This document shows, piece after piece, positions 11,316-52,317 of a DNA stretch of 56,797 nt (its first letter is position 1; every line of letters starts with the position of its first letter). Location of the stretch: assembly GCA_023229385.1 (NCBI GenBank), contig JALNZI010000008.1, positions 1 through 56,797 on the forward strand, written 5' to 3'. The notes under the pieces were generated by a model. The model did not search any database and was not told the DNA's origin. It saw only the letters and a list, made by a program, of their open reading frames with translations. The DNA is from Candidatus Omnitrophota bacterium. GTDB taxonomy: Bacteria > Omnitrophota > Gorgyraeia > Gygaellales > Profunditerraquicolaceae. Made by a program: the position numbers and the translations under genes.

Positions 11316-12448
11316 AATTTTATTTTGATTAAACCATATTTTAAATGGAAATATTTTTTAATAATATTTGGAAAATTCATTTTAAACCTCAATAAACTCT
11401 TATTGTTTTTACTTGCTTGCATAAATGACATTTTTTTAAAAATTGCGGGAACATTACACCATCCACTTAATGCCATATAAAAAGAAGGAAAAGGACTTTT
11501 TCTCCATTTTTCAAATTTCATTATATATGGTAAGCATTCATATTTCATTAGAATATTAAGTCTTTCAAATATTTCAACCAAATCATTTTCCCAAAACTTG
11601 TCATCATATTTGTTATTTTTATCAAATGCACAAAATATATAAAATTTAGGAATTTTGTTTGGCATATACTTTTTAAACAATTTTATTTTTTCTTCAATTA
11701 TTTCTTTATCTTCATAATTATCAAATGCAAATATGTAATCACCATCATATTTACTTTCAGATAATATTTTTGCTTTTTTTTCTGTTAATAAGCGTATATC
11801 AAGACCTTGATTATAACAAAAAGGTTTTTTAGTTTCTTGCAATTGTTTGAATATAATTTCCCAATATTTTCCAGAACCAAATACATTATCGTCTAGTAAT
11901 ATAATTTTCTTTCTTTTTTCATCAACAAATTCTGATAATGGACTATGCAATGTTACAGTTTTAACACCTCTATTGAAACAAAAAGAACATTGTCTAAAAC
12001 ATCCTCTCGTTGTGAATCCGATAGAATAATCTAAATAATTTTTAAAATATTTTCTTTGTCTTCTTTTAAATCTAATTTCATTTTTTATCCATTCATCATA
12101 TAAGTGATAATCAGGAAAGTGATGTTCTATTTCATCAGGTAATCTTGGTGTTTTTGAATACTCTGGTTCTTTTTGTCCTTTTTCATAAAAAAATCCTGAT
12201 CCACCATATTCAACAAATGGTAATTTTAAAATAAATTTTGGTATGTGTGAATCAGTAAAAACTTTTGAAACAAAAACTTTATCATATTTGCTTTGAAAAA
12301 GAGCACTTGGACTAAGCTCTTCAAAAGAAATAAGTTTTACTTTATGTCCAAGTGCTTTATAATAACCTGATAATTTCATCAAAGCAAGATTGGGAAAATT
12401 ATGATGTTTTCTACTGATTAGTTCAACATCAATCATTCCAATATACAT
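11312..12448 (-). CDS. radical SAM enzyme with N-terminal B12-binding-like domain
   Basis: GFTTRGCFRQCSFCFN is a CxxxCxxC radical-SAM cluster motif, and an N-terminal Rossmann-like block MIDVELISRKHHNFPNLALMKLSGYYKALGHKV precedes it. Confidence 0.65.
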   Translation of the reverse strand: MYIGMIDVELISRKHHNFPNLALMKLSGYYKALGHKVKLISFEELSPSALFQSKYDKVFVSKVFTDSHIPKFILKLPFVEYGGSGFFYEKGQKEPEYSKTPRLPDEIEHHFPDYHLYDEWIKNEIRFKRRQRKYFKNYLDYSIGFTTRGCFRQCSFCFNRGVKTVTLHSPLSEFVDEKRKKIILLDDNVFGSGKYWEIIFKQLQETKKPFCYNQGLDIRLLTEKKAKILSESKYDGDYIFAFDNYEDKEIIEEKIKLFKKYMPNKIPKFYIFCAFDKNNKYDDKFWENDLVEIFERLNILMKYECLPYIMKFEKWRKSPFPSFYMALSGWCNVPAIFKKMSFMQASKNNKSLLRFKMNFPNIIKKYFHLKYGLIKIKL

Positions 12449-12467
12449 GATTTATTTATTTGGATTT

Positions 12468-13511
12468 TTATATTTTTTTTACATCTTCTGCATGTTTGTA
12501 GAAGTTTTTTTCGGTGGTAAGAATCATGTACCAAAAACGTTTACTCTGTTTGTGCCAAAAGTACTTTTCAAGTTTTCCTTTTCTTTTTTCTCCTGTTTTG
12601 TCAGTAAAAGTTACCGTATCACCTTTAGCAAATCCTTTAGGCCATTCAACTTTAGCATGTTTTTCTACTTGTTCTTTAACTTTTTTAGCAGGTTTTTCTA
12701 CCTTTTTCTCTGTGGTAAGACCTTGTTCAGCAAGAATATCAAGCATTTTCTTTTTAAGGGAAAATACACTTGATTTAGCTAGTAATGATTTACGTTTCTT
12801 TTTAAACTCGTCATTTTCCTTTACCAAATTTTGCAAATCAGCTTTTTTAGCTGTTTCTTTTACCGTTATTGCAAGATTTTCTTCTTCATCCTCTTCTTCA
12901 TCCTCTTCTTCTTCTGGTTCAGGAACAATTATCTTTTTATTTTTTTTAACGGGTTCAGGTTTATCTTTTTCATTACCTTTTTTTACTGGTGGTAAGTCTT
13001 CATCTTCATCTTCATCAGGTTCAGGTTCAATTACTTTTTTACCTTTTTTTATAGGAATAGGTTCAGGTTTATCTTTTTCATTACCTTTTTTTACTGGTGG
13101 TAAGTCTTCATCTTCATCTTCATCTTCATCAGCATCTTCGTCCTCATCAGCATCTTCGTCCTCATCCTCGTCTTCATCAGCATCTTCGTCCTCATCAGCA
13201 TCTTCATCCTCATCTTCATCCTGATCAGCATCTTCGTCTTCATCAGCATCTTCATCCTCATCTTCATCCTGATCAGCATCTTCGTCTTCATCCTCTGTGC
13301 CATACTTTTCAGCTAAGCCGTCAAAAATGGCCTGTGTAGTTTTGGTAAATTTGTCACCTTCTTCAAACAGTTGAAGAACAGTATCATAAAGTTCCTTTGC
13401 AAATTCATCAAGTTCCATTTCATTATACGCTATTGCAGGATCAACTCCCACAACTTTGTCCAGCTCTTTATAAGCTGCAACCAATTCCTTTTTTGAATAA
13501 TTTTTTGCCAT
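12468..13511 (-). CDS. acidic-repeat protein (EDEDEDADxDE tract plus LPPVKKGNEKDKPEP repeats) with a basic C-terminal domain
   Basis: About 75 aa are purely D/E/A/Q repeats. LPPVKKGNEKDKPEP(I/V) occurs twice, each followed by an acidic run, and there is a C-terminal K-rich domain. Confidence 0.55.
   Translation of the reverse strand: MAKNYSKKELVAAYKELDKVVGVDPAIAYNEMELDEFAKELYDTVLQLFEEGDKFTKTTQAIFDGLAEKYGTEDEDEDADQDEDEDEDADEDEDADQDEDEDEDADEDEDADEDEDEDEDADEDEDADEDEDEDEDLPPVKKGNEKDKPEPIPIKKGKKVIEPEPDEDEDEDLPPVKKGNEKDKPEPVKKNKKIIVPEPEEEEDEEEDEEENLAITVKETAKKADLQNLVKENDEFKKKRKSLLAKSSVFSLKKKMLDILAEQGLTTEKKVEKPAKKVKEQVEKHAKVEWPKGFAKGDTVTFTDKTGEKRKGKLEKYFWHKQSKRFWYMILTTEKNFYKHAEDVKKI
12880..13300. 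repeat. tandem coding repeats (GAT/GAA/GAC-rich 48-bp units, plus a roughly 60-bp unit at about 12950 and 13055)
   Basis: gatcagcatcttcgtcttcatcagcatcttcatcctcatcttcatcct is repeated. ggttcaggtttatctttttcattacctttttttactggtggtaagtcttcatcttcatc is also repeated. Confidence 0.8.
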
Positions 13512-13666
13512 AATAAATAAATTTTGATTAAATAAATAAATAATTAAGTTAAATATAAGGTTTTTAAACCGTTTTCAATTAAAATACAAATATAGTATTA
13601 TTTTTAACAAAAACAAATAAATTTAAAGTTTTTTTTAATATTTTATTAAAAATTGTTATATAATGT

Positions 13667-13799
13667 AAAAATAACAGGGGTAAAATTACAAAAAGTGCTT
13701 ATTATGTTAAATAAAATTAAAACATCATTTAAAAACAAGTTACTACATGAAGTTAAAAGAACGCCCGGGCGTCACCGTAGCCGGTTCCCTGTTATTTTT
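13667..13799. repeat. 13-bp perfect inverted repeat (AAAAATAACAGGG ... CCCTGTTATTTTT) enclosing a GC-rich palindrome
   Basis: Arms at 13667-13679 and 13787-13799. ACGCCCGGGCGT is at 13761-13772 and ACCGTAGCCGGT follows it, then a T-run on the plus strand. Confidence 0.6.
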
Positions 13800-13809
13800 A
13801 TTATTATTA

Positions 13810-14040
13810 TTATGTATTTCGTAATTCATAAACTTCATCATTATCAAGTAAACGAACATCTACATCAGTACCATCAACAACACATAATACAGAAGAATCA
13901 AAATCAATAAATCCTTCTTTAATATGTAAAAGTACGTGTCCATGATCAATACAAATATTTTTAACAGTAATCATAAGATCACCTACTTTTGTATCAACAG
14001 CCTTTATTATCGAGTTTTGTCTTATTAATTTACCTTTCAT
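13810..14040 (-). CDS. hypothetical protein
   Basis: 76-aa ORF. Confidence 0.3.
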   Translation of the reverse strand: MKGKLIRQNSIIKAVDTKVGDLMITVKNICIDHGHVLLHIKEGFIDFDSSVLCVVDGTDVDVRLLDNDEVYELRNT

Positions 14041-14052
14041 TTTTATAAATTT

Positions 14053-14373
14053 TTAATCACTATCTTTCATATCTTGCTCTGGCAGATATGTATCCGTCAT
14101 TTTTTCTTCTTCATAATTTTTATCAGTTTTAAGATTTTCTAACATACGCATACACATAGCAGCAGTTTGTTTTAATTCCATTTTTACATCTTCAATAGAA
14201 CCACATCCATCTATATAATGTAAAACAGCTTTAGTTACTTCACCAGCTTCTTCTTGCATTATAGCAAGTTGTTCCAACATATCCTTTGGATATTTTGGAT
14301 GAATCCTTTTTGCACGTTGTAATTCATGATCTATTGCCATGTACTTTTCTAAACGATTTGATTCTGCATTCAT
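14053..14373 (-). CDS. MazG-like NTP pyrophosphohydrolase (second copy)
   Basis: LAIMQEEAGEVTKAV is an EExGE core. Confidence 0.4.
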   Translation of the reverse strand: MNAESNRLEKYMAIDHELQRAKRIHPKYPKDMLEQLAIMQEEAGEVTKAVLHYIDGCGSIEDVKMELKQTAAMCMRMLENLKTDKNYEEEKMTDTYLPEQDMKDSD

Positions 14374-14403
14374 TTTTTTAACTTTTTAATTTTAATATAC
14401 TAA

Positions 14404-14778
14404 TTAACGTTTTATCCAAATAACTTCTTTTTTATCTGGTATGGTTTCTATTACTCTTTGTTTGCATCTTTCACAGATGTAAGATATATAGTGATCAGAT
14501 GGAGTCACCATATATGAGATACTGTCTAAGTCTAAAATGTATAATTTTGCATAAATAGAATAACGTTTTATGTCTTTCCCAAAAACATGCCCTCTTTCCT
14601 TACAGTACTTGTTTACAGAATCTGAATTATTGTATGTAGTTAACTCTTTAATTCTTTCTTTATAAATAGAATCATCCTTTTCTTGTGCTACTTTCAATAT
14701 GGACTCATAACGATTTACTTGTGCTGATATATTTACACAAATAAATAAGAACAATAAAATAATAAATACTTTTTTCAT
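14404..14778 (-). CDS. secreted protein (signal peptide ending in SAQ)
   Basis: MKKVFIILLFLFICVNISAQ is a signal peptide, and the mature protein is Cys-containing. Confidence 0.45.
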   Translation of the reverse strand: MKKVFIILLFLFICVNISAQVNRYESILKVAQEKDDSIYKERIKELTTYNNSDSVNKYCKERGHVFGKDIKRYSIYAKLYILDLDSISYMVTPSDHYISYICERCKQRVIETIPDKKEVIWIKR

Positions 14779-14838
14779 TTTTTCATTTTAATTTAAATAT
14801 GAAGTACTTTTTCAATAAAAACATCATCTGGCATATAG

Positions 14839-15012
14839 TCAGCCCCCATAATATGTTTTATATTCCCTACCTCTTTTTGCACGTATATATCTTATTTGTG
14901 GTCCACGATAATTAATAACACCTGTACCTGCCATTTCATAAGTTTTTACACATAAATTATCATGTTCTTTTTTTAACAATTGCAATTGTTTTATCAAATC
15001 TGAAATTTTCAT
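14839..15012 (-). CDS. small hypothetical protein (57 aa)
   Basis: MKISDLIKQLQLLKKEHDNLCVKTYEMAGTGVINYRGPQIRYIRAKRGREYKTYYGG. It fills the gap between two genes. Confidence 0.25.
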   Translation of the reverse strand: MKISDLIKQLQLLKKEHDNLCVKTYEMAGTGVINYRGPQIRYIRAKRGREYKTYYGG

Positions 15013-15014
15013 AA

Positions 15015-15260
15015 TCAAAAATTGTTTTTTAGTTCTAAAATATTGTTAGCTATACAAGCAAATTGATTATGTTCTGCAAGTAAATTAAGTAATTGTACAA
15101 AAACTTCATGTCTATTACTTTCTATGTGCTTTATATAATCAATATTTCTTTCAAGTTCACTAATCTTATTTTTTAATTCACGATTTTCATTTTGAACATT
15201 ACGTAGTTCCCATTTGTCTGCTTTTTCTTTTAATGCACTTTCAAATTCATAATTATTCAT
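15015..15260 (-). CDS. coiled-coil hypothetical protein
   Basis: ORF rich in E/K/L. Confidence 0.3.
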   Translation of the reverse strand: MNNYEFESALKEKADKWELRNVQNENRELKNKISELERNIDYIKHIESNRHEVFVQLLNLLAEHNQFACIANNILELKNNF

Positions 15261-15652
15261 AGCTTTTTAATTTTAATATTGTAAAACATATTTATTGGTT
15301 CATTCTTATCAACTAAAATATCTATTTTATTACTCCAACGTTTATTCATTAAATCTTCAACAAAATAGATACCATCATAAATTTCAGTTCCAGTAATTAA
15401 AACCTTATCACCAAAATTAAAGAATTTTAATAAATCTCTGCTTATGGCAATAAACTTATAATCATTATAATTTTCTGTCTTTATTTCTTTTAAGCTGGCT
15501 GTAGTTGTTCCTGTTTTGTATATTGTTGCAGTAACAATAAATTCATTAAAACTATGATCAAAATGAATTATATAGTTTTTAATAAATTTTTGTTCATTAT
15601 GCAAATGGAATATACAAAACAATAGGATTATTATAATTAATAATTTTTTCAT
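15257..15652 (-). CDS. secreted/membrane-anchored hypothetical protein
   Basis: N-terminal MKKLLIIIILLFCIFHLHNEQ. Confidence 0.4.
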   Translation of the reverse strand: MKKLLIIIILLFCIFHLHNEQKFIKNYIIHFDHSFNEFIVTATIYKTGTTTASLKEIKTENYNDYKFIAISRDLLKFFNFGDKVLITGTEIYDGIYFVEDLMNKRWSNKIDILVDKNEPINMFYNIKIKKL

Positions 15653-17213: not shown

Positions 17214-17552
17214 TTATTTGTTTAATAATTTAATATTATTTTTGATTTCAGCAAAATACTTTCTTAACCTTAGCTCTTCTACTAAATCAGGTTTATCTCT
17301 TTTATAAAGTTCATCTATATACATTGGAATAACCATTGCACCATGGCATAAATTACAAGTTTCAAAACCATTACTAATTGAAGTAGGTGAACCATACCAA
17401 TTATTAATTAGTATTTTTCCATTACCATTACATTTAGGACATAATTGATATGGTATGTATTGAATTGTTTTCTTATTTTTTTTCATTTTACCTATTCCTT
17501 TTATACATTTTTCCATTATGACGAATAAATAAATTATAACCATTCTGTGCAT
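17214..17552 (-). CDS. zinc-ribbon protein
   Basis: CPKCNGNG...CNLCHG. Confidence 0.35.
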   Translation of the reverse strand: MHRMVIIYLFVIMEKCIKGIGKMKKNKKTIQYIPYQLCPKCNGNGKILINNWYGSPTSISNGFETCNLCHGAMVIPMYIDELYKRDKPDLVEELRLRKYFAEIKNNIKLLNK

Positions 17553-39793: not shown

Positions 39794-41422
39794 ATGCCTT
39801 GGAAAATTTCGGATGTGGATTCACATAAAAAAGGATTAACATCAGAACAGAAAAAGAAATGGGTTGCAACAGCAAATGGTGTATTAGCTGATTGTAAAAG
39901 TAAAGGTGAAGATGATTGTGAAGGAAAGGCTATAAGAATAGCTAATGGCACAGTTAAAGTTAATATGGAAATAAGTGTAAATTTTACACAATCTGCATAC
40001 ATACCAAAAATAAGAGAATATTCAGGCAAACAATATTATGTGGTTCCAGTAGTTATGATGGTTGAAGGTGTGCATAATGGAAGTGCTGGACCAATATATC
40101 ACTCAATTGAAGTTTTGTCTGAATGTGTTGCTGATTGGGAATTTAAGCCCGTAACAATACATCATCCAACTAATGATGATGGTGAATTTATTTCAGTACA
40201 AGAAGAAGGTATTTTAGAAAATTGGAGTGTTGGCTTTGTTTCTAATGCACAAATTGAAGATAATAAATTAAAAGCATTAGCTTATTTAGATATACAAAAA
40301 TTATCTGTATTGTCGGATGAAACATTATCTAATATACAGAATGGTAAGATAATGGAAGTTAGTGTTGGTATTTTTACAGATAATGATGAAATTGAAGGTG
40401 AATGGAATGGTGAACATTATACAGCCATAGCTAAAAAGCATAGGCCGGATCATCTCGCTCTTTTGCCCGGAGAGACTGGTGCGTGTTCTGTGAAAGATGG
40501 TTGTGGTGTACGTGTTAATCAACAAATAAGTAATAATAATGAAAAAAAGAAAGGAGAAAAAAATGAAATGAAATTAGAAATAAATAAGGATTTTGTGTAT
40601 GATTTAGCAGAAAAAGGATTAACATTAGTTCCTATTTCTGTAAATTTGATTACAAATAAAGATGGTTTGTTATCAATTTTGAATAAAGTATATGAAGTAT
40701 TACGTGGTATGGGTGATGATCATACATATTATTTTCTTGAGGAAATATTTGATGATGCACTTATTTATGGCAAAAGTACTGAAGGTAATTCAAATTTGTA
40801 TAAACAAACTTATCAAGTAAATGCTGATGGTTCTATTGAATTAACTGGCACACCGGTTAAAGTAAATAGAAAAGTTGAATATGAAATACAAGTGAGTACT
40901 AATTCTAAAAATAAAAAGGATATGTGTGATAAATGCCCTGATAAGGCAAAAGCATTAGTTAATAATGAACGTACAAATTTTGATGATAGTGATCTTTCAT
41001 GGTTGTCAGAATTGACTGAGGATAAGTTGGATAAACTTTTTCCAAAGTTGGCGGTGAATACTAAAACGACACCTACAATTGAAGAAGCTTGGAATATTGT
41101 AAAGACGGGGTACAAAAACCTAGAAGACTATACCAAAATGTTGCCGGATGATATTCGGGGACAGATTGAAACAGGTTTACAGGTTTTTCAAAAGGTAAGG
41201 ACAGATATAATTAAATCTATTGTGGATAATACAGAAGAAGGTGTATGGAAGAATGAAGATTTGGAGAAAATGCCTTTAGATGTATTGCAAAAAATTGAAA
41301 AATCAGTTGTAAAAAAGAATAATACAGTTGCTGATTATTCTGTTATGGGAACTCATGGTAGTCATGAAAAAGAAGGTAAAATAGAACCCATGCCCTTACC
41401 GGGAGTTAAATTTGAAAATTAA
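39794..41422 (+). CDS. putative scaffolding/prohead core protein (DUF2213-like N-domain plus acidic coiled C-half)
   Basis: Position between the Mu-F and capsid genes. DUF2213-like end block RPDHLALLPGETGACSVKDG. Strong SD (taaggagatttaattATG). Confidence 0.4.
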   Translation: MPWKISDVDSHKKGLTSEQKKKWVATANGVLADCKSKGEDDCEGKAIRIANGTVKVNMEISVNFTQSAYIPKIREYSGKQYYVVPVVMMVEGVHNGSAGPIYHSIEVLSECVADWEFKPVTIHHPTNDDGEFISVQEEGILENWSVGFVSNAQIEDNKLKALAYLDIQKLSVLSDETLSNIQNGKIMEVSVGIFTDNDEIEGEWNGEHYTAIAKKHRPDHLALLPGETGACSVKDGCGVRVNQQISNNNEKKKGEKNEMKLEINKDFVYDLAEKGLTLVPISVNLITNKDGLLSILNKVYEVLRGMGDDHTYYFLEEIFDDALIYGKSTEGNSNLYKQTYQVNADGSIELTGTPVKVNRKVEYEIQVSTNSKNKKDMCDKCPDKAKALVNNERTNFDDSDLSWLSELTEDKLDKLFPKLAVNTKTTPTIEEAWNIVKTGYKNLEDYTKMLPDDIRGQIETGLQVFQKVRTDIIKSIVDNTEEGVWKNEDLEKMPLDVLQKIEKSVVKKNNTVADYSVMGTHGSHEKEGKIEPMPLPGVKFEN

Positions 41423-41445: not shown

Positions 41446-41901
41446 ATGGCGAAACACACCATTAAAATTAAAAAGTATTCTGATGTTATTGAAGAATACG
41501 TGAATGGTACAGTATTACCGGTTACGCCTGGAATGCTGATTGAGATAACAAGTGATAATGTAGTACAACCACATTCTACTGAGGATGGTGCAGCTTTGAT
41601 TATGTTTGCTTTGGAAGATGAACTTCAAGGTAAAGGTATTGATGATGCTTATGCCGTAAGTACAGCAAGTCCAATTGTGAAAGTACCAGTTCAATGTTGG
41701 CTACCCGGTCATGGTGATATGGCTTATGCTTTGTTAGCAGACGGTGAAACTGCTGTAATAGGTAGTTGGTTAGCCAGTAATGGCGATGGGAAACTGAAAG
41801 TCAGTACTACGAATCCAATTGGTCAGGCTGTTGAAGCTGTTGATATGAGTGGTTCATCAGGTGCTGATCCTAGTGGTCGTATTATTGTACGTATTAATTA
41901 A
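41446..41901 (+). CDS. small head protein (decoration/auxiliary capsid protein)
   Basis: 151-aa Gly/Ala-rich protein immediately before the major capsid gene, with a strong SD (aaaggaggttaagaaATG). Confidence 0.35.
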   Translation: MAKHTIKIKKYSDVIEEYVNGTVLPVTPGMLIEITSDNVVQPHSTEDGAALIMFALEDELQGKGIDDAYAVSTASPIVKVPVQCWLPGHGDMAYALLADGETAVIGSWLASNGDGKLKVSTTNPIGQAVEAVDMSGSSGADPSGRIIVRIN

Positions 41902-41916
41902 AAGGAGGGGAAAATT

Positions 41917-43002
41917 ATGTTAGATGTTAATGTTGATTTGATGGGTAATGGTGGCGGACAAGGTGAAATTGCCGCTTATATGCAACAGAATAACAGATTA
42001 GACCCTGCTGTATTGCGCCCGTATAGGGGAACTGACGGAAAAGCTTATATTTCAGTTTTTAAAGGAGGTGATCCTAAAAAACCTGAAAATTATTCTGTTA
42101 TTAATGTAAATGAAGCTACACTTCGTCCGTATGAGTGGAGACAATTAGATGAAGCTGTTATTACTATTGCTGAAAATAGGTTAGTTGGAGTAAATGATCT
42201 TATTTCCAATGGACTAACTTATAATTTGGGCAATGCTATGGGTACGACCGTACTTGAAACACATACTATATCAGATGCAATGGAAGCTGATCTTACTATG
42301 GATGCTGTTTCAAGGGCTAAAGGTGATCGTCCTGTTTTTGGAACTAAGTACACTCCAATTCCAATAATTCATGTGGATTATGAAATTAATGCAAGGGTAC
42401 TTGCTTCAAGTCGTTCACTTGGCAATCCTTTGGATACTTCATCTGCTGAACGTGCTGCACGTAAAGTAGCAGAAAAATTGGAAGATATGTTGTTTACTAA
42501 CACTACTTATGGATTTGGTGGTGGAACTATTTATAGTTACATTAACTATCCTGATAGAAGTTTAATATCACTTACTACTTATGGTAATTGGGCTACTAGT
42601 ACTACTACCGGAGCAAAAATCATTGAAAGTGTACTTGCAATGAAACAAGCTTCTATTGATGATAATTATTTTGGTCCTTGGAAGTTGTATGTACCAACGA
42701 ATTTTGAAACTCGTTTGGATAATGATTATGATACGGTAACTCCGGGTACGACTATACGTGAAAGAATATTAAAAATTGGTGGTATTCAATCGGTTACTGT
42801 GGCTGATCATCTTCCTGCTTCAAATGTTTTGTTAGTACAAATGACTAGTAATGTTGTAAGATTAATTCGTGGAATTGGTCTTACAAATGTTGAATGGCAA
42901 ACTGAAGGAAAATTCGTTAATAAATACAAAGTATTAACTATACAAGTTCCTCAAATTCGTTCTGATTATAACGAAAAAACTGGAATTGTACACATGAGTT
43001 AA
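41917..43002 (+). CDS. major capsid protein
   Basis: Size (361 aa), position, the strongest SD in the window (aaaggaggggaaaattATG), and a terminator-like hairpin plus T8 immediately downstream. Confidence 0.6.
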   Translation: MLDVNVDLMGNGGGQGEIAAYMQQNNRLDPAVLRPYRGTDGKAYISVFKGGDPKKPENYSVINVNEATLRPYEWRQLDEAVITIAENRLVGVNDLISNGLTYNLGNAMGTTVLETHTISDAMEADLTMDAVSRAKGDRPVFGTKYTPIPIIHVDYEINARVLASSRSLGNPLDTSSAERAARKVAEKLEDMLFTNTTYGFGGGTIYSYINYPDRSLISLTTYGNWATSTTTGAKIIESVLAMKQASIDDNYFGPWKLYVPTNFETRLDNDYDTVTPGTTIRERILKIGGIQSVTVADHLPASNVLLVQMTSNVVRLIRGIGLTNVEWQTEGKFVNKYKVLTIQVPQIRSDYNEKTGIVHMS

Positions 43003-43009
43003 ATTTAAT

Positions 43010-43032
43010 TCACTAATCAAGTGATTTTTTTT
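43010..43032 (+). terminator. putative terminator/attenuator after the major capsid gene
   Basis: TCACT-aatca-AGTGA hairpin followed by TTTTTTTT. Confidence 0.4.
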
Positions 43033-43059: not shown

Positions 43060-43515
43060 ATGGTAGAACGTAAAAGAATTAGAAACGATGTAACAATTAA
43101 AATGCCTATTGTTGAAGAACAAATAGTTACGGATGAAGAAAAAGAAAAAATTGCTATTGAAGAAAAAGCATTTAATGAAGAAGTAACAACAGTAAAGTCA
43201 GAACTAATTGAACGTAAACCGATACGATGGAAAAAAGTAGGTGGTGGAAGTTTTTCTTTAAATAATCGGTTTATTAAACCGGGACAAATATTTTTAGCAT
43301 TTCCAGAAGAAATACCTGTTCAATTTCGTGATCTTGTTATTCCTTTAGAAGAAAAACCTTTACCTTTAAATATTGAAGAAATTAAAAAGAAATCATCTTA
43401 TAAGTTAGAGGAAAAATCTGATGGATGGGATATTTTAGATTCTTTTGGTAAGGTTTTAAATGAAAAACCAATGGAGAAAGAAGTTGCTGAACGTATTTTA
43501 GTTATGTTACAATGA
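43060..43515 (+). CDS. charged 151-aa protein carrying a roughly 50-aa module also present inside the 1084-aa glycosyltransferase fusion
   Basis: RKPIRWKKVGGGSFSLNNRFIKPGQIFLAFPEEIPVQFRDLVIPLEE here, versus IRKPIRWKKMGNGSFLFNNCYIKKNQVFTAFSEDIPKQFRDVIIPLEE at about 47815-47960. Confidence 0.5.
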   Translation: MVERKRIRNDVTIKMPIVEEQIVTDEEKEKIAIEEKAFNEEVTTVKSELIERKPIRWKKVGGGSFSLNNRFIKPGQIFLAFPEEIPVQFRDLVIPLEEKPLPLNIEEIKKKSSYKLEEKSDGWDILDSFGKVLNEKPMEKEVAERILVMLQ

Positions 43516-44207
43516 TATGGTCCGTACCTAAAATATGGGAAGGTGGTGATGCTTGGATATTAGGTGGTGGACCATCTATTATTGATCAATTTAATATACC
43601 TAAAGAGGTGTCAGAAAAGGTATTATTGAAACAATTACCTTTGTCTGCATATTCAAGTTATATGAAACTTATTCATGATAAACATGTTATAGGTATAAAT
43701 ATAGCTTATTTAATAGGTAATTGGATTGATATTGTATTTTTTGGAGATAAAAATTTTTATCTTACACATAAGGAAGGTTTGTTTAATTTTCCGGGATTAA
43801 AAATTAGCTGTAATCCAGAAGTTGAAAAATGTTTTTGGATAAAATATTTAGCACAAGATAAAGCTAAACATTTAGGAATTACAACAAATCCAAAAATGAT
43901 TAGTTGGAATAAAAATAGTGGAGCTGCTGCTATAAGTTTGGCTGTTCATACAGGAGTTAAAAGAATATTTCTTTTAGGTTTTGATATGAAATTGAATGAT
44001 GCAAATAAACAGCATTGGCATAGTGAATATAAAAATCCACAAGAACCATTAAATTTAAGAAAGTTGCCATTTCAAAGACATTTAACTGGTTTTCCTAGTA
44101 TTTATAAAGATGCAAAGAATCTAAATGTACAAATTTACAATGTAAATTCAGATAGTGCAATTACACAATTTCCATGTATTAATTTAAAAGAAGCTTTGGA
44201 ATTATGA
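43512..44207 (+). CDS. putative Rossmann-type glycosyl/sugar-nucleotide transferase (DUF115/MptE-like)
   Basis: GGDAWILGGGPS...HVIGINIAYL...GAAAISLAVHTGVKRIFLLGFDM. The GxGPS and LGxD blocks are typical of that family. Confidence 0.35.
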   Translation: MIWSVPKIWEGGDAWILGGGPSIIDQFNIPKEVSEKVLLKQLPLSAYSSYMKLIHDKHVIGINIAYLIGNWIDIVFFGDKNFYLTHKEGLFNFPGLKISCNPEVEKCFWIKYLAQDKAKHLGITTNPKMISWNKNSGAAAISLAVHTGVKRIFLLGFDMKLNDANKQHWHSEYKNPQEPLNLRKLPFQRHLTGFPSIYKDAKNLNVQIYNVNSDSAITQFPCINLKEALEL

Positions 44208-45409
44208 AAATTATAAATTGTCCAATTAGTGGTAGTGAAAAAGGGGTAGAATTTCTTAATTTAGGAAAAATACCACTTGTAAATAATTTATGTGATACAA
44301 AACAAGACGCATTAAATTGTGAAAAGTTTTCATTAGCTGTTCAGTTTTTTCCTGAAAGTAAAGTTACTTGTTTAACAGAAACGGTGGATAAGGACAATTT
44401 ATTTCTTCATTATTTGTATCAATCGGGTGTAAATAAGCCTTATTTAGATCATTGTGCTGAAATGTATGATTATTTATCCCATATTATTGATTTTAAAGAC
44501 AAAGATGTTGTATTAGACATTGGTGGAAATGATGGTAGTTTATTAAAAGAATTTAGAAAGGAAAATCAAAATCTTCATTATATAAATGTTGATTGCAGTC
44601 GTAGTTTTATTGATGTTAATCGAGAATCTGGAATTGAATATATTAACGAATATTTTGGTGAAAGTATATCTTTACCATATAAAGCTAAGTTGATTACATC
44701 AACAAATGTATTTCAACACACGGAACCCATACGTTCATTCGTAAAAGGTATTTGTAGGAATTTGTCAAATGAAGGTGTTTGGTGTTTGGAATTTCCTTAT
44801 ATTCTTACAACACTTGCAAATGATAATTATGATCAGGTTTATCATGAACATGTGTATTATTTTTGTTTACAGAATATAATTGATATAACAAAACAAGAAG
44901 GCTTAAAAGTCATTAATGTTTCTTATCATGATATGCACGCTGGAACATTGCGAGTTTTAATTGTGAAAGAATCTTCACGCAGACAACCAGATAATACAAT
45001 ACTTTCTTTTCTTAATTTGGAAAAAACACTAACAAAAGAATACTATTTGAAGTGGGGATCACAAACAACATCGAAAATTAAGCAATATCAGGTAGATATG
45101 AAAAGACTTGTTATGAATGGTGCAAAGGTTGCTTGTTTTGGTGCTGCTGCAAAAGGGTGCATCTTTTTAAATACTTGTGAAATAGATAACACAATGGTAC
45201 AATTTATTATTGATGATACTCCTTTTAAGCAAGGTAAATTTGTTCCGGGAACAGGAATAGAAGTTGTAAGCAGAAAAATATTAAAAGATGTTAAAATAGA
45301 TTATATGATTATTCTTGCTCATAATTTTAAAGATTATATAATAAATTCATTAAAGGGGCAATATAATGGTAAATATATTTTAATGTTTCCTGATATGAAA
45401 ATATTATAA
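44204..45409 (+). CDS. sugar C-methyltransferase family protein (TylC3/EvaC-like; N-terminal Zn-like domain, SAM-binding domain, C-methyltransferase C-terminal domain)
   Basis: NCPISGSEKGVEFLNLGKIPLVNNL resembles CxxCGSxxLxxVLDLGxQPLAN. Motif I is VVLDIGGNDGSLL. The C-terminal domain is CFGAAAKGCIFLN...IDDTPFKQGKFVPGTGIEVVS...MIILAHNFKDYI. Confidence 0.65.
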   Translation: MKIINCPISGSEKGVEFLNLGKIPLVNNLCDTKQDALNCEKFSLAVQFFPESKVTCLTETVDKDNLFLHYLYQSGVNKPYLDHCAEMYDYLSHIIDFKDKDVVLDIGGNDGSLLKEFRKENQNLHYINVDCSRSFIDVNRESGIEYINEYFGESISLPYKAKLITSTNVFQHTEPIRSFVKGICRNLSNEGVWCLEFPYILTTLANDNYDQVYHEHVYYFCLQNIIDITKQEGLKVINVSYHDMHAGTLRVLIVKESSRRQPDNTILSFLNLEKTLTKEYYLKWGSQTTSKIKQYQVDMKRLVMNGAKVACFGAAAKGCIFLNTCEIDNTMVQFIIDDTPFKQGKFVPGTGIEVVSRKILKDVKIDYMIILAHNFKDYIINSLKGQYNGKYILMFPDMKIL

Positions 45410-45432
45410 TATTGTGAAATAAATATAATTAT

Positions 45433-46290
45433 ATGCTAACAGCTAGCAATATCGAAAAAATTTGTATTGTCACAGTATTTGATAGACATTATAAAGAAGC
45501 AGGGAAAACTTTGTTTAATTCAATCAGAAGGCATACAAATTGTGATGGAATAGATTTTAAAGTTATTACATCAGATGAGGAAGTATTAAATGAATGGGGA
45601 AAGGATAATTGTTATTTTGTAACGGATAATATTAAAAATAGGTATAAGAATGTTCAATATTCTAAGGATTTACCTATTGAGCGATATGCTTTATCATGGT
45701 ACAGATATGAAATATTCAATATGACTGATTACGATAGAGTAATATGTATTGATTCTGATTGTATATGTGTTCAAGATATTAGTTATTTATTTAGTGAAGA
45801 ATTAAATCAGTATGATCTTATTTCTGTTGAAGATCATTTTGTATCAAAAATACTACCTAATTTATATTCTAAATTAGAAAAGAATGGTTGGAACTTTACA
45901 AATTTATACAAAAGGGTTTCTTTAAAACAAGTTGATATTCAACCTGCTGTACTTGTAATTAATAAGAATGTCATAAATAGTATATGGTATAATGAGTTAT
46001 TAGCTTATGCTAATAATACGGGTTTTACTTATTCTATTGATCAAGGTATTCTAAATGATTTTATTTATCAAAAAAATATAAATATCAAATTACTACCGTT
46101 GGAATGGAATTATCAAGACCTTTATGCTATTCGTTGTTCAGAACTTGCAGTAGTTAATCCAATTATAATTCATTGTCAAGAATCCAAACCTTTTAAACTT
46201 GTTAGAAAAAATGTAGATGTACGAATACAAAAATTTTATGATCAATGGTGGTATGAATATGATTATGCCAAATCATTGAAAACAACAACA
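45433..46290 (+). repeat. internal duplication, copy 1 of the GT8-like domain
   Basis: About 60-70% nt identity to 46294-47110. It includes an exact 42-bp match at 45775-45816 (gatattagttatttatttagtgaagaattaaatcagtatgat). Confidence 0.8.
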
Positions 46291-48687
46291 AGGATGAAAG
46301 GTAAGATATGTATAACTACTACATTTGATTATAACTATAAACATGCAGGACAAACTTTGCTTAGTTCAATCAGAAGACATACAAATTGTGATGGAATTGA
46401 TTTTAAAATAATTACTAACGATCCAAAGGTTGTGGCTGAGTTTGGAGCAGAAAACTGTCATATTATTACTCCTGAAATACAAGCCAATTATAATAACGTG
46501 AAATATATTACTGATATTCCTAAAGAACAATATTATTCTTCGTGGTATCGTTATGAGATGTTTAATTTTGAGGGATATGATCGGGTAATATGTATTGATT
46601 CTGATTGCATTTGTATTGAAGATATTAGTTATTTATTTAGTGAAGAATTAAATCAGTATGATTTAATATCAACAGAGGACATGATTGTTTCTCACATGTT
46701 TAAACAACATATTCCTTCGTTAGAGAAGAACTACGGATTAAATTTAGTAGGTTTACGACGTAGAATAGCTGCTGGTCAGGTTGATATTCAACCGGCATTA
46801 CTTGTTGCTAATAAAAAAATTGTAAATAATAAATGGTATAAGCAATTAATAACTTATGCCAATACAACAAATCATACTTATTCTATTGACGAAGGTATCT
46901 TAAATGATTTTATTTATTTGAAAAGATTGAACATTAAGATATTACCAATGGAATGGAATTATATGGATACTTATGGTGCTCAAATATTGGAACTTCCTGA
47001 ACCTAAAAAACCTTTTATTGTGCATTGTCAAGAATCTAAACCTTTTAAAAAGGATAAAGCAGATGTTAATGTGCGAATACACAAATGGCATAATAAATGG
47101 TGGGAAGAAGCTAATCATATAAAATATTCAACTATTGTTGCTATTATTGTTTGGAATAGATTTGAAAATCTAAAATTATGGGTAAATGCTTGGAATCAAT
47201 GTATTCAAAGTGATGTTAAGTTAATAGTTGTTCACAATCTTGAAAGTGACAATAATAGATATTCTCAGTTATGTAAAGATAACGGAATAATGTATATTCC
47301 AAGAGAAAATAAAGGTTTTGATATTGGGGCTTTTCAAGATGTATGTAAAGAAAGATTGGAAGGTTTTCCTAATGATTGGGAAAATTTAATCTGGATTACT
47401 GATGATTGTATTCCAATGGCAAAAGATTTTGTTGAACAATTTTTAAAATGTTTACCAAAAATACCTTGTTATGAAATATCTCAGGAAGTAAAAACTCATG
47501 TTAGAACTACCGGATTTTTAGTCACCAAAGAAATATCTAAAAAACTTGTTTTTCCAAAAGACCCGATAGAGAATAGGGAAGATTGCTATCAATTTGAACA
47601 TAAAGGCTTTTTACAAGTTAAAAATATGTATGAACAGATTGTTAGTATGGGAAAACAACCAGTAATGGTTAATAAGGATTTAAGGTTATCTCCATTATGG
47701 GATTCAGGAGTAAGATGGCAACTTAAATTAATGGGTAAACATGAAGCTATTTTTCCATTTATTAAAATAAATGTTGAACCGATAAAAGTAGATGTTAAAC
47801 TAGTTGAAGCAGAATTACCTATAAGAAAACCAATTCGATGGAAAAAAATGGGTAATGGTTCCTTTTTATTTAATAATTGTTATATTAAAAAAAATCAAGT
47901 ATTTACTGCATTTTCTGAAGATATTCCAAAACAGTTTCGTGATGTAATTATTCCATTAGAAGAAATAGTTTCGGAAATTAAAAAAGTTATTCCAGTTGAA
48001 CCGGTTAAATTAAATAGTAAACCGATTATATATAATGTTTTGGATGAGTTGGCTATTAAGCATAAATCAGATAAGTCTTCTAGGTATCATAATTACGCAG
48101 TAAAATATGATAAAATATTATTTCCGTTTAGAGAATCATTTTCATCAATTTTAGAAATTGGTGTATCACAGGGACAGTCTACAAAAATGTGGACCGATTA
48201 TTTTGAGAATGCTACTATTCACGGTGCAGATATTGAAAAAGGTTCTAAAATTTGTGAATCATATTCTAATAGAGTAAAATTTCATGAACTTGACCAACGA
48301 GATTTAGCACAACTTAAAAATCTTGAACAATTTTCTCCATTTGATTTTGTAATAGATGATGGTAATCATTTTTGGTTTGAACAAATTCTTACATTTGAGG
48401 CTTTGTTTCCTTATGTTAGAAAAGGAGGAATATATATTGTTGAAGATACTACTACTTCTTATTGGGAGGAATATAAAAATAATCCGATTTCACCCGTAGA
48501 ATATTTTAAGACATTGGTAGATGAAGTTCATCTTAAAGGGGCAAGAGGAAATATTCCTATAAATCCCCCGCAGGAATTTGGTAATTGGGAAAAAGGGTGG
48601 CATCGTAGGGAAGATTGTTTTGAATCAGTACCTTTATTTGAATCAATTCAATTTATGAATGGTTTTATTGTAATTTATAAAAGATAA
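45433..48687 (+). CDS. 1084-aa multidomain fusion: GT8-like + GT8-like + GT-A (GT2-like) + shared 50-aa module + TylF/MycF-like O-methyltransferase
   Basis: The two GT8 units each carry the donor-site DxD block VICIDSDCIC(V/I)(Q/E)DI and the HxxGxxKPF block (IIHCQESKPF and IVHCQESKPF). The GT-A block is IVAIIVWNRFENLKLWVNAW...LIWITDDCIP. The O-methyltransferase has motif I ILEIGVSQGQSTKMW, then DFVIDDGNH and GGIYIVEDT. Confidence 0.7.
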   Translation: MLTASNIEKICIVTVFDRHYKEAGKTLFNSIRRHTNCDGIDFKVITSDEEVLNEWGKDNCYFVTDNIKNRYKNVQYSKDLPIERYALSWYRYEIFNMTDYDRVICIDSDCICVQDISYLFSEELNQYDLISVEDHFVSKILPNLYSKLEKNGWNFTNLYKRVSLKQVDIQPAVLVINKNVINSIWYNELLAYANNTGFTYSIDQGILNDFIYQKNINIKLLPLEWNYQDLYAIRCSELAVVNPIIIHCQESKPFKLVRKNVDVRIQKFYDQWWYEYDYAKSLKTTTRMKGKICITTTFDYNYKHAGQTLLSSIRRHTNCDGIDFKIITNDPKVVAEFGAENCHIITPEIQANYNNVKYITDIPKEQYYSSWYRYEMFNFEGYDRVICIDSDCICIEDISYLFSEELNQYDLISTEDMIVSHMFKQHIPSLEKNYGLNLVGLRRRIAAGQVDIQPALLVANKKIVNNKWYKQLITYANTTNHTYSIDEGILNDFIYLKRLNIKILPMEWNYMDTYGAQILELPEPKKPFIVHCQESKPFKKDKADVNVRIHKWHNKWWEEANHIKYSTIVAIIVWNRFENLKLWVNAWNQCIQSDVKLIVVHNLESDNNRYSQLCKDNGIMYIPRENKGFDIGAFQDVCKERLEGFPNDWENLIWITDDCIPMAKDFVEQFLKCLPKIPCYEISQEVKTHVRTTGFLVTKEISKKLVFPKDPIENREDCYQFEHKGFLQVKNMYEQIVSMGKQPVMVNKDLRLSPLWDSGVRWQLKLMGKHEAIFPFIKINVEPIKVDVKLVEAELPIRKPIRWKKMGNGSFLFNNCYIKKNQVFTAFSEDIPKQFRDVIIPLEEIVSEIKKVIPVEPVKLNSKPIIYNVLDELAIKHKSDKSSRYHNYAVKYDKILFPFRESFSSILEIGVSQGQSTKMWTDYFENATIHGADIEKGSKICESYSNRVKFHELDQRDLAQLKNLEQFSPFDFVIDDGNHFWFEQILTFEALFPYVRKGGIYIVEDTTTSYWEEYKNNPISPVEYFKTLVDEVHLKGARGNIPINPPQEFGNWEKGWHRREDCFESVPLFESIQFMNGFIVIYKR
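46294..47110 (+). repeat. internal duplication, copy 2 of the GT8-like domain
   Basis: Exact 42-bp match at 46621-46662, with parallel protein blocks HAGQTLLSSIRRHTNCDGIDFKIIT and EAGKTLFNSIRRHTNCDGIDFKVIT. Confidence 0.8.
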
Positions 48688-48688
48688 A

Positions 48689-49384
48689 ATGCTTGTATTA
48701 ATCACACCAACAGGAAGTCGTCCAAAGCAATTTGAATTATGTATGCAATGGATGAAGCAACAAACTTATACAGGTAAAGTTGTTTGGATTGTTATAGATG
48801 ATTGTTTTCCTAAAACAATAGATATTCTTAATGAAGATTTTCGTGAAAATTGGTTAATAATTAAAAAATACCCAAAACCTTTATGGGAAATTGGGAAAAA
48901 TACACAGGGTAGAAATTTAAAAATTGCTATTGATACTATTAATGCTTTTCCTAAAGATTGGGTTGAAACAATTTATATAATTGAAGATGATGATTATTAT
49001 AAACCTGAATATTTACAAACAATGAAAGACCGTTTGAAAGGGTTTACATTAGCAGGTGAGGTTAAAACAGTATATTATAACATTAAGTATAAAATGTTTA
49101 AGGAAATGGCTAATACAAGCCATGCAAGCCTATTTCAAATATGCTTTACAGCTGATGCTTTACCTATACTTGAAAAATATCTAAATGATGGATTTATTGA
49201 TATTAATTTTTGTAAAAATATAAAGAATATTAATTTATTTGAAGCTAATAAATTAGCAATAGGTATAAAAGGTTTACCTGGAAGACCTGGAATAGGAATT
49301 GGGCATAGACAAAAAGGAATTTTAGATATAAATTTAAACAAGTTAAAAGAATTAATTGGTGAAGATTATAAATATTATTTATAA
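48689..49384 (+). CDS. putative GT-A-fold glycosyltransferase
   Basis: N-terminal LITPTGSRPKQFELCMQWMKQQ (GT-A beta1-alpha1) and an acidic EDDDYY (DxD-like) block. Confidence 0.4.
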   Translation: MLVLITPTGSRPKQFELCMQWMKQQTYTGKVVWIVIDDCFPKTIDILNEDFRENWLIIKKYPKPLWEIGKNTQGRNLKIAIDTINAFPKDWVETIYIIEDDDYYKPEYLQTMKDRLKGFTLAGEVKTVYYNIKYKMFKEMANTSHASLFQICFTADALPILEKYLNDGFIDINFCKNIKNINLFEANKLAIGIKGLPGRPGIGIGHRQKGILDINLNKLKELIGEDYKYYL

Positions 49385-50073
49385 TGCTAAGAAAAATACA
49401 ACATAATCCTATTTTCATAACCGGAGTTGAACGTTCGGGTAGTACTATTATTGCAAGAATTTTAGATTTGTGTAATGTAAGTTCTGGAAATTGTAATAAT
49501 ATGTTTGAAAATGTTATTATTAATGAATTTAATACAGATTATTTGAAGAATTTTTCATTAACTTTTCCTAAAACAGCAGATATTGACATACCAATAAGAT
49601 GGAAAGGTGCAGTTGATGGTGTTTTATTGGTTGAGAATTGCCTTGACAAGCCCTATATGGTTAAATCTGCTATGTTAGCAAGGTTATGGCCAATATGGAA
49701 TTATGCTTATCCTGATGCCAAATGGTTAATAGTTCGTAGGCGTACAGGAGACGTAATACAGTCTTGTTTAAAAACAGGTTATATGAAAACTTTTAAATCT
49801 GCTGAAAATTTATTATCTTTGGGTCTTACAAAAGAAGCAGAAGGTTGGCTTTGGTGGATACATCAATACGAAAATAAATTTGTTGAAATGATTAAAGCTG
49901 GTTTAAATTGTAGAATTATATGGCCTGAAAGAATGGTTACTGGCAATTATGAACAAATGTATGAAACAATTGAATGGTTAGGTTTAAAATGGAATGAACA
50001 AATACCAGAAATTATTGATCCATTATTAAGTAAAAGTAGGGAGGGTATTATATATGAGAACAACAGTAGATGA
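49384..50073 (+). CDS. sulfotransferase family protein
   Basis: The 5'-PSB-like motif is PIFITGVERSGSTIIARIL (compare PxFIxGxxRSGTT). The 3'-PB-like motif is AKWLIVRRRTGDVIQS (RxxxDxxxS). Confidence 0.6.
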   Translation: MLRKIQHNPIFITGVERSGSTIIARILDLCNVSSGNCNNMFENVIINEFNTDYLKNFSLTFPKTADIDIPIRWKGAVDGVLLVENCLDKPYMVKSAMLARLWPIWNYAYPDAKWLIVRRRTGDVIQSCLKTGYMKTFKSAENLLSLGLTKEAEGWLWWIHQYENKFVEMIKAGLNCRIIWPERMVTGNYEQMYETIEWLGLKWNEQIPEIIDPLLSKSREGIIYENNSR

Positions 50074-50425
50074 TGTAATTGATATTTTAGATAATACAGA
50101 ATTAGATGATTCTGTTATTGAAAAATATATTAATAGTGCAAATGTATTTGTTACAGGTACATTAGGTACAACTTTGAGTGTGTCTATTCTTACAGAAATT
50201 GAAAAATGGATGGCTGCACACATGATTGTTTCAACTCGTGAACGTATGTCTAAAGATGAAGGTGCTGGTGGGGCTTATATTAAATGGTCTGGTCAATGGG
50301 GTATGGGTTTAAACTTCACACCTTATGGTCAAATGGCAGTTGCTTTGGATACCACAGGAGTATTAAATAACATAGCAAAGGGTAAATCTAATGCTTGGGT
50401 TCATGCTATACCTAATTTTGATTAA
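50054..50425 (+). CDS. head-tail connector/adaptor protein (gp6-like)
   Basis: Size, position and an SD of gtagggagggtattatatATG. It has the SVSILTEIEKWMAAHMI helix typical of head-tail adaptors. Confidence 0.45.
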   Translation: MRTTVDDVIDILDNTELDDSVIEKYINSANVFVTGTLGTTLSVSILTEIEKWMAAHMIVSTRERMSKDEGAGGAYIKWSGQWGMGLNFTPYGQMAVALDTTGVLNNIAKGKSNAWVHAIPNFD

Positions 50426-52250: not shown

Positions 52251-52266
52251 TAATTAAAATAATAAA

Positions 52267-52288
52267 GCTAATCAAGCAATTTTTTATT
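52267..52288 (+). terminator. weak terminator-like element sharing the CTAATCAAG loop motif with the element after the capsid gene
   Basis: GCT-aatca-AGC followed by aaTTTTTTaTT. The stem is only 3 bp. Confidence 0.25.
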
Positions 52289-52317
52289 CATAAAAATAAA
52301 TTTAAAAATTAATCAAA

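Follow-up and report, generated by a model that had tools for sequence, protein, structure and literature searches.

The question that this locus raises is why a protein of 151 amino acids (aa), encoded at the start of a cassette of putative sugar-modifying genes, should share a segment with a 1084-aa glycosyltransferase (GT) fusion enzyme encoded three genes further on. The DNA concerned is the 56,797-nucleotide (nt) contig JALNZI010000008.1 (assembly GCA_023229385.1, filed under Candidatus Omnitrophota bacterium), the whole of which we call the window; both genes lie on its plus strand, at 43060-43515 and 45433-48687, as the first and fourth genes of the cassette. An original prediction, made from the letters alone, held that a module of about 50 aa is common to the two proteins at roughly 70% nt identity, that it sits between the GT-A and methyltransferase domains of the enzyme, and that it might be a shared docking element or, alternatively, that the small protein might be a glycan acceptor or carrier. 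The similarity itself was confirmed by BLASTP: residues 41-98 of the small protein align without gaps with residues 787-844 of the enzyme (36 of 58 identical, 45 of 58 positive; E 9e-22 for this single comparison), and the DNA is 68% identical over these 58 codons. Within this alignment the segment RKPIRW...PLEE, which we refer to as the module, spans aa 52-98 of the small protein (nt 43213-43353, plus strand; core IRWKKVGGGSF...FRDLVIPLE at aa 55-97) and aa 798-844 of the enzyme (nt 47824-47964, plus strand, a few bases away from the 47815-47960 first proposed). The two copies differ by a proportion of 0.51 at synonymous sites (pS) and 0.26 at nonsynonymous sites (pN), and because the resulting dN/dS is ~0.38 it is established that both have been under purifying selection since they diverged. 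A hidden Markov model (HMM) of the module gives 87–100 bits for the two copies and for each member of the family; together with the E-value and the dN/dS ratio, this rules out a chance or low-complexity match. AlphaFold2 (AF2) predicts the core (aa 55-97) as a small beta-rich domain of five short strands and one short helix, with a predicted local distance difference test score (pLDDT) of 86–94; its conserved residues are W57, K59, G61-G63, K73, F78 and F89.

Looking for the module elsewhere, as had been proposed, revealed a real conserved domain in a large family. A word-indexed search returned 15 homologs of the small protein (108–155 aa), while an exhaustive profile search identified 1090 clusters at 50% identity with E-values of 1e-3 or less, 836 of them at 1e-10 or less; the best 150 of these clusters all have lengths of 88–192 aa. 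Neither the small protein nor the module matched a family at E ≤ 0.01 in Pfam-A, PHROGs v4 or NCBIfam (none at E ≤ 1 in Pfam), the small protein had no sequence relative in the PDB at E < 0.09, and in the literature we found no paper on this cassette or on the small-protein family. Family and module are hence undescribed in the libraries and literature searched. In the window's protein the module is preceded by a Glu/Lys-rich extension that is predicted to be disordered (aa 1-51, nt 43060-43212, plus strand; pLDDT ~47–55) and that ranges in length from 1 to 77 aa among family members, and it is joined by a Pro/Glu/Lys-rich linker to a C-terminal domain, hereafter the C-domain, predicted as a beta-hairpin and a helix (aa 113-151, nt 43396-43512, plus strand; pLDDT 83–89). 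The C-domain, with the motif Y..(W)D(I/V)(L/V)D..GKVLNEK.L.KE.AE.L, was seen solely in enzyme-bearing phages, and it is found neither in the enzyme-fused copies of the module nor in the homologs of enzyme-less phages. Several loci carry rearranged forms of the small gene: the whole gene is duplicated in tandem in L042 (6397-7107) and L087 (10112-10848), the second copy being without the GGGS loop of the module; the C-domain is doubled within one protein in L007 (8219-8686) and L086 (9902-10441); and in L080 (9773-10315) an additional C-domain lies ahead of the module.

How did the module come to be inside the enzyme? By Pfam matches, PDB sequence matches and orthologs, the enzyme has the domain order GT8, GT8, GT-A-like, inserted module and MycE/TylE-like sugar O-methyltransferase, and ortholog alignment bears out the placement of the module between the last two catalytic domains. 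It lies in a lineage-specific segment of 89 aa (aa 775-863, nt 47755-48021, plus strand), the equivalent linker being only 10–13 aa long in seven relatives, namely six metagenomic homologs (P0165, P0167, P0173, P0188, P0191 and P0231, ~10 residues) and locus L014; none of 77 homologs of the enzyme's methyltransferase half has the module. The L014 protein is a full ortholog, 68–82% identical in all four catalytic domains, with a module-less linker of 13 aa, and the closest relative of the inserted module is the L014 small protein (75% identity, vs 66% for the window's own small protein). Since the L014 ortholog lacks the module and the L014 small protein is the nearest to it, the capture falls after the split between the window and L014; judged by these relationships, the module was copied into the linker from a small-protein gene of this sub-clade. 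The L014 ortholog (11784-15431) is a 1216-aa open reading frame (ORF) with an additional C-terminal extension of ~210 aa, which shows that domain shuffling occurs in these enzymes.

This capture is not the only one. Six-frame profile scans of the loci gave 89 ORFs with module and C-domain, four with a module and two C-domains, one with the order C-domain, module, C-domain, and six in which the module is fused to an enzyme. Besides the window's enzyme, the module forms the N-terminus of the gene following the Maf-like gene (see below) in L071, L074 and L088 (318–324 aa), and likewise in L072 and L078 (705–717 aa, with a weak Capsule_synth/Kdo-transferase-like match). The fused copies of these five loci group together, nearest to the small proteins of their own clade and separate from the copy in the window, and by this grouping they represent a second, independent capture. 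No cassette enzyme beyond these six fused copies carried the module in an iterated HMM search of six frames from 94 sources. An apparent fusion of the small protein with the Maf-like protein in L080 proved to be a reading-frame artefact of high-GC DNA, and no such fusion was found.

The place of the small-protein gene at the head of the cassette was also borne out, and the cassette is conserved across hundreds of phage lineages. We fetched loci via the small protein and mapped profile matches on 92 of them: the small gene directly follows the major capsid protein (MCP) gene wherever the contig reaches upstream, with a gap of 22–190 nt in nearly all, and in all 91 loci that continue beyond the small gene, a gene for a Maf-like protein of ~231 aa lies directly downstream, separated by 3–15 nt or overlapping. 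In the window the stop codon of the small gene overlaps the next start (ATGA), and the Maf-like gene follows at 43512-44207 (plus strand). Its product has the central Maf/sialyltransferase-like fold, and PHROGs names it 'sialyltransferase'; its match to PF01973 scores 22.9 bits, below the gathering score (cut-off 34.6), and 40 of 45 members match weakly. Only 231 aa long, vs 632 aa for the Magnetospirillum Maf of PDB entry 5mu5, it aligns over 184 residues to the core of the latter and lacks both the N- and the C-terminal Maf flanking domains. Between the small gene and the adaptor gene lie anywhere from 728 nt to ~9.7 kb. The minimal cassette, that of L057, has just the small protein and the 231-aa Maf-like gene before the adaptor gene; elsewhere a variable set of enzymes intervenes, including GT2, GT8, GT11, GT47/exostosin-like and RXYLT1-like transferases, several methyltransferase families, radical SAM and cupin proteins, adenosine 5'-phosphosulfate (APS) kinase and sulfotransferases, and in most cases a Sulfotransfer_3 gene, immediately ahead of the adaptor gene, closes the cassette. 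This locus defines a conserved two-gene core of small protein and Maf-like transferase, a small-protein family of at least 1090 unannotated clusters and a domain that moved onto enzymes at least twice.

The module also occurs where the Maf-like enzyme does not. We gathered a second sample of loci via the capsid protein, for which 411 capsid-gene loci were found, counting those whose sequence continues for 1.5 kb or more past the capsid gene. Thirty of these were enzyme-less, their adaptor gene starting 84–780 nt after the capsid gene, 20 had the small protein with the Maf-like gene, and 17 had the Maf-like gene but failed to match one small-protein profile or both. The post-capsid gene of most of these 17 encodes a divergent version of the small protein: an unbiased comparison of full-length profiles of the main family and this divergent enzyme-associated set gave Prob 98% and E 1.8e-13 over 95 columns spanning both domains. 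In L138 and L140 a module-bearing small protein is followed by a sulfotransferase only, with no Maf-like gene, and in L140 (75 aa) and L126 (57 aa) the small protein consists of the module alone. In the enzyme-less loci the product of the post-capsid gene is likewise small; it shows a similar core motif, Y.LK.G.EH...G....GD.V.LT..Q..AF.DKF, and a low-complexity tail that is Pro/Thr-rich, acidic or made of GT or GET repeats; examples in culture are Brevundimonas phage MaInes, Halorubrum virus Hardycor1 and Mannheimia phage 587AP2, whose gp08 (L175 3397-3621) joins a module-like domain to a collagen-like GET repeat tail. Over the module, the profile of this enzyme-less set matches that of the divergent enzyme-associated one (Prob 94%, E 1.2e-7). 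At the same position Klebsiella phage KpV2811 encodes gp38 (L174 3425-3682), which has no module and matches head-fibre PHROG families. KpV2811 and 587AP2 are both cultured relatives whose capsid protein is of the same family; the post-capsid position seems to be reserved for head-surface appendages. The Hardycor1 paper presents the module homolog only as hypothetical and without virion proteomics, and the HFTV1 cryo-EM paper was not informative.

Translation signals set the cassette apart from the structural genes around it. In the window, strong AGGAGG-type Shine-Dalgarno sequences precede the starts of the decoration, capsid and adaptor genes (41446, 41917 and 50054), and none precedes the six cassette starts (43060, 43512, 44204, 45433, 48689 and 49384). 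The same split between structural and cassette genes is seen across ~90 loci: in the main clade a Shine-Dalgarno sequence of at least 5 nt is found at the capsid gene in 97%, the decoration gene in 99% and the adaptor gene in 77% of loci, vs 18% for the small gene, 7% for the Maf-like gene and 4% for the sulfotransferase gene; among the post-capsid genes of enzyme-less phages the figure is ~70%. Between the capsid stop and the small-protein start we also found a hairpin, TCACT-AATCA-AGTGA followed by T8 (43010-43032, plus strand), with a second copy at 52266-52290 after the probable tail-tube gene; L004 has such a pair at 9962-9970 and 17487-17495. A consensus terminator scan and a free fold called no intrinsic terminator between the capsid and small genes; it was the cross-locus comparison that revealed the conserved weak hairpin with its T-run there. 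The loop context CTAATCA[AGT]G is invariant in most cassette-bearing loci, and the stems co-vary, 39 variants remaining complementary. Placed behind the two structural genes that are most abundant, the element resembles a sequence-specific terminator, an operator hairpin or an element of RNA stability. For the window's clade, the small gene's lack of a Shine-Dalgarno sequence and the hairpin ahead of it would fit an accessory protein rather than a stoichiometric component of the shell.

Which protein might the cassette enzymes act on? The better acceptor candidate, by its sequence, is not the small protein but the decoration protein, which has a Ser-rich acidic loop, DMSGSSGADPSG (aa 133-144, nt 41842-41877, plus strand), a candidate site for O-glycosylation. 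Among the homologous loops of L001-L173, those of enzyme-bearing phages read D[LM]S[GDS]SSG[AE][DE].. at this C-terminal site, as in DMSGSSGADPSG of the window or DLSGSSGEESSG..., whereas enzyme-less relatives have DNSGG; the Ser-rich motif was present in 56 of 105 distinct decoration sequences from enzyme-bearing phages and in 0 of 21 from enzyme-less ones, and the loops hold on average 4.0 vs 2.4 Ser (Mann-Whitney p 9e-7, kinship ignored). The loop resembles the Ser-Gly acceptor motifs of proteoglycans.

We favour the reading that the module is a portable head-docking domain and the small protein a low-abundance adaptor, and hold it tentatively, at a little short of an even chance. The gene of the 151-aa protein would then have founded a cassette for modifying the phage head. 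The protein's module would recognise a constant feature of the head, either the lattice of capsid and decoration proteins or the decoration protein before assembly, and its C-domain, the beta-hairpin and helix, would face the enzymes, so that the small protein could deliver to their substrate both the minimal Maf-like O-glycosyltransferase, whose gene comes next and overlaps, and the other cassette enzymes. The 1084-aa enzyme, having its own copy in a linker, would dock without the adaptor, and the second phage lineage would have arrived at the same self-docking with the module at the N-terminus of other enzymes. The acceptor would be the Ser-rich acidic loop of the decoration protein, on which a methylated, sulfated glycan may be built. 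That the partner is a constant head component and not one particular enzyme is suggested because the module is kept in L138 and L140 and has remote homologs in enzyme-less relatives. Docking is further favoured because the enzymes fused to or associated with the module have unrelated folds, because the module moved onto enzymes twice and was kept under selection, because the invariant neighbour enzyme is a stripped core without the Maf flanking domains, because the small protein looks accessory in the window's clade, and because the module is found beside the capsid gene whichever enzymes are present and, in remote form, even where there are none. Of the docking element originally proposed, then, the conserved and predicted autonomous domain, its at least two independent fusions to enzymes and its retention without the Maf-like enzyme stand; its binding partner, like the role of the C-domain and the identity of the acceptor, we infer.

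Several observations weigh against this reading. Head binding by the module is reached indirectly from the patterns above, and the link from the main family to the enzyme-less post-capsid proteins, is transitive and only moderately supported, because the direct comparison of the two sets was not significant (Prob 2.9%, E 0.015). The small genes of the divergent clade have a Shine-Dalgarno sequence in 71% of cases, and because these signals are good, low abundance of the small protein is not general. An adaptor and an enzyme docking at one site would compete. The contrast between decoration loops rests largely on one enzyme-less clade, and its p-value ignores phylogeny. Lastly, in a distance-matrix (mirror-tree) comparison the module correlated with the MCP at only r 0.20 and with the Maf-like protein at r 0.35; since the small protein's own two domains gave r 0.10, short domains being noisy, this result is uninterpretable. 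A fuller picture would have the heads of this very large, uncultured phage lineage bear a proteoglycan-like, methylated and sulfated glycan on the Ser-Gly acidic loop of the decoration protein, begun by the Maf-like transferase and extended by the products of interchangeable genes for GTs, methyltransferases and sulfotransferases (in some phages also APS kinase), the enzymes being targeted to the head by a 45-aa domain, a natural capsid tag, either in trans through the adaptor or in cis; in this entirety we regard it as rather doubtful.

The original prediction also raised the alternative that the small protein itself serves as acceptor or carrier; this we consider unlikely and less well supported than docking. 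The Maf-like enzyme would add the first sugar to it, say to the Ser of the GGGS loop or within the C-domain, others would elaborate it, the resulting glycoprotein would decorate the head, and the module within enzymes would be a recognition or auto-modification tag. Such a role would agree with the occurrence of the small protein alongside all kinds of modification enzyme, with the Maf-like transferase being next in every main-family locus that reaches far enough and with the stop/start overlap between the two genes. The Gly-rich loop, at what is predicted to be the tip of a hairpin, also contains Ser in 75% of the main-family modules and either Ser or Thr in 81%, and Tyr114 of the C-domain is nearly invariant; however, the divergent enzyme-associated clade has no such Ser in the loop, which there reads GGNH, GMGRH or the like, no Ser or Thr is conserved across the wider small-protein family, and the linker and N-terminus are rich in Pro, Glu and Lys, not in Ser/Thr. 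A displayed head appendage is made plausible by the fibre-like tails at the same position in enzyme-less relatives and by the head-fibre match of KpV2811, yet an abundant displayed protein fits poorly with a gene that has no Shine-Dalgarno sequence in the window's clade. This alternative moreover leaves unexplained why enzymes should carry an acceptor domain under purifying selection, and a Ser-rich loop specific to enzyme-bearing phages is already offered by the decoration protein.

Two further explanations involve no docking of enzymes at the head. The module might be an enzyme-enzyme assembly domain that binds the Maf-like transferase or itself and so builds up a multi-enzyme glycosylation complex, with the small protein as its scaffold or regulatory subunit and the module not touching the head directly; this too strikes us as improbable. 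The tight linkage and overlap with the Maf-like gene, the position of the second-lineage fused enzymes immediately after that gene, and the tandem and C-domain duplications, which suggest multivalency, would all suit such an assembly; but the module is kept in L138 and L140 without a Maf-like gene, it has remote homologs in phages without any enzymes, and no fusion of the small protein to the Maf-like protein was found. Module distances do track the Maf-like enzyme slightly better than the MCP, in a correlation whose within-protein control makes it uninterpretable. Very improbable, in our view, is that the small protein is a general accessory of head assembly or DNA packaging at the position of lambda FI that has nothing to do with glycosylation, with the cassette inserted downstream and the copy in the enzyme a tolerated recombination scar. 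It does occupy that position, between the capsid and adaptor genes, and remote homologs of the module do occur without enzymes; against this, the C-domain is confined to enzyme-bearing phages, the copy in the enzyme is under purifying selection, and two independent enzyme fusions would not be expected of a neutral scar.

The remaining genes place the cassette in a tailed-phage head module on the plus strand of the window, which comprises protease/scaffold, decoration and MCP genes, six cassette genes and an adaptor-like gene. The protease/scaffold gene (39794-41422; DUF2213) is followed by the decoration gene (41446-41901) and the HK97-like MCP gene (41917-43002; DUF6260/Linocin_M18), directly upstream of the small-protein gene. 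The six cassette genes together span 43060-50073. After the small-protein and Maf-like genes comes a methyltransferase with the domain set of the NDP-sugar C-methyltransferase type (44204-45409; Pfam Methyltransf_14, Methyltransf_13 and Methyltransf_23), then the 1084-aa enzyme, then a second 231-aa protein (48689-49384) with no family match and an EDDD motif, possibly a GT-A-type transferase, and last a Sulfotransfer_3-family sulfotransferase (49384-50073; Pfam), the usual cassette-final gene. The head-tail adaptor-like gene lies at 50054-50425. No PDB sequence relative was found for the sulfotransferase or for the second 231-aa protein. The G+C content of the window is 29%. A tblastn search of 50,697 phage records with the small protein gave no match, the main family having no cultured relatives there, and a scan of 185,579 species genomes identified the family in two short contigs of metagenome-assembled genomes only, with no prophages found, so that the lineage is probably virulent and uncultured.

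Other loci showed further variation in gene content. Exostosin (GT47)-like, RXYLT1-like, two families of sulfotransferase and APS kinase genes were identified in L001 (13467-14288), L006 (7937-8782) and L004 (11682-12269, 13991-14692 and 14875-15285), which suggests that such cassettes make sulfated glycans with the sulfate donor supplied by the phage itself. In L090 (5927-9664) a Maf-like core is fused to more glycosyltransferase-like regions in a single 1246-aa ORF, and in L007 (756-2813) the portal protein is fused to an S-adenosylmethionine (SAM)-dependent methyltransferase (685 aa; Phage_portal_3 with Methyltransf_11, 12, 23, 25 and 31). Distant Maf-like relatives occur in phages P1 (PmgP) and P7 (HdmB) and in Caulobacter, Brevundimonas and Xanthomonas jumbo phages, none with the small protein; that of Pseudomonas phage PAJU2, also without the small protein, lies between head-closure and tail-terminator genes beside a methyltransferase.

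To our knowledge, few systems of phage-encoded virion glycosylation have been described, and we know of no explanation of how cytoplasmic enzymes find hundreds of identical capsid sites. Docking of the module at the head, if true, would account for the targeting of the enzymes; it would also provide a metagenome marker for capsid-modification cassettes and a small tag with which proteins could be sent to phage heads. The exostosin-like and xylosyltransferase-like genes, the sulfotransferases and the APS kinase, together with a Ser-Gly acidic loop that is acceptor-like, suggest sulfated surface glycans on the particles, which would affect adsorption to mucus and particles, immune recognition and host range.

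The nearest known counterparts in gene content are mycobacteriophages of the Che8, Corndog and Myrna type, whose virions are reportedly glycosylated. Those systems and the window alike have glycosyl- and methyltransferase genes among the structural genes of a tailed phage, with virion surface proteins the presumed targets; here the stretch from the capsid gene to the adaptor gene holds GT8, GT-A-like, Maf-like, methyltransferase and sulfotransferase genes. The comparison is one of gene content and not of sequence, and glycosylation in the window's lineage is predicted from the genes alone. Unlike in mycobacteriophages, cassettes of the window's type always lie between the capsid and adaptor genes, are headed by the small protein and the Maf-like transferase and commonly end in a sulfotransferase, and we know of no docking module or adaptor protein from the mycobacteriophage systems. 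The Maf-like protein differs from Magnetospirillum Maf in being the core alone, and its target would be a phage head protein and not flagellin. The GT-GT-methyltransferase A064R of chlorovirus PBCV-1, a capsid-glycan enzyme, is alike in concept to the window's 1084-aa protein, both being viral multidomain enzymes with several GT domains and a terminal sugar methyltransferase, although they were compared by description only; the window's enzyme has four catalytic domains and a non-catalytic module inserted in a linker, and no inserted linker module is known to us from A064R.

For the module, the closest comparison is one of function. Encapsulin cargo-loading peptides, T4 capsid-targeting sequences and the dockerin-cohesin pair are likewise portable elements that send unrelated proteins to one assembly, and the window's MCP also matches the encapsulin family Linocin_M18; there is, however, no sequence or fold relationship of the module to any of these tags. 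Dockerins are calcium-binding, and the encapsulin and T4 tags are short terminal peptides of ~10 aa, whereas the module is a predicted folded domain of ~45 aa that lies inside the window's enzyme and at the N-terminus of other enzymes. In gene position the small protein corresponds to lambda gpFI, other small post-capsid proteins and head fibres, with which it has in common a small folded domain and a flexible or fibrous region; in the window and the 92 loci it lies between the MCP and adaptor genes as gpFI does, and the small protein showed no homology to gpFI (C-domain, PDB 2lsm) in sequence or structure. Set beside these systems, what is new here is not membership in a known family, which we do not claim, but a previously unrecognised accessory protein and a portable domain within predicted phage virion glycosylation.

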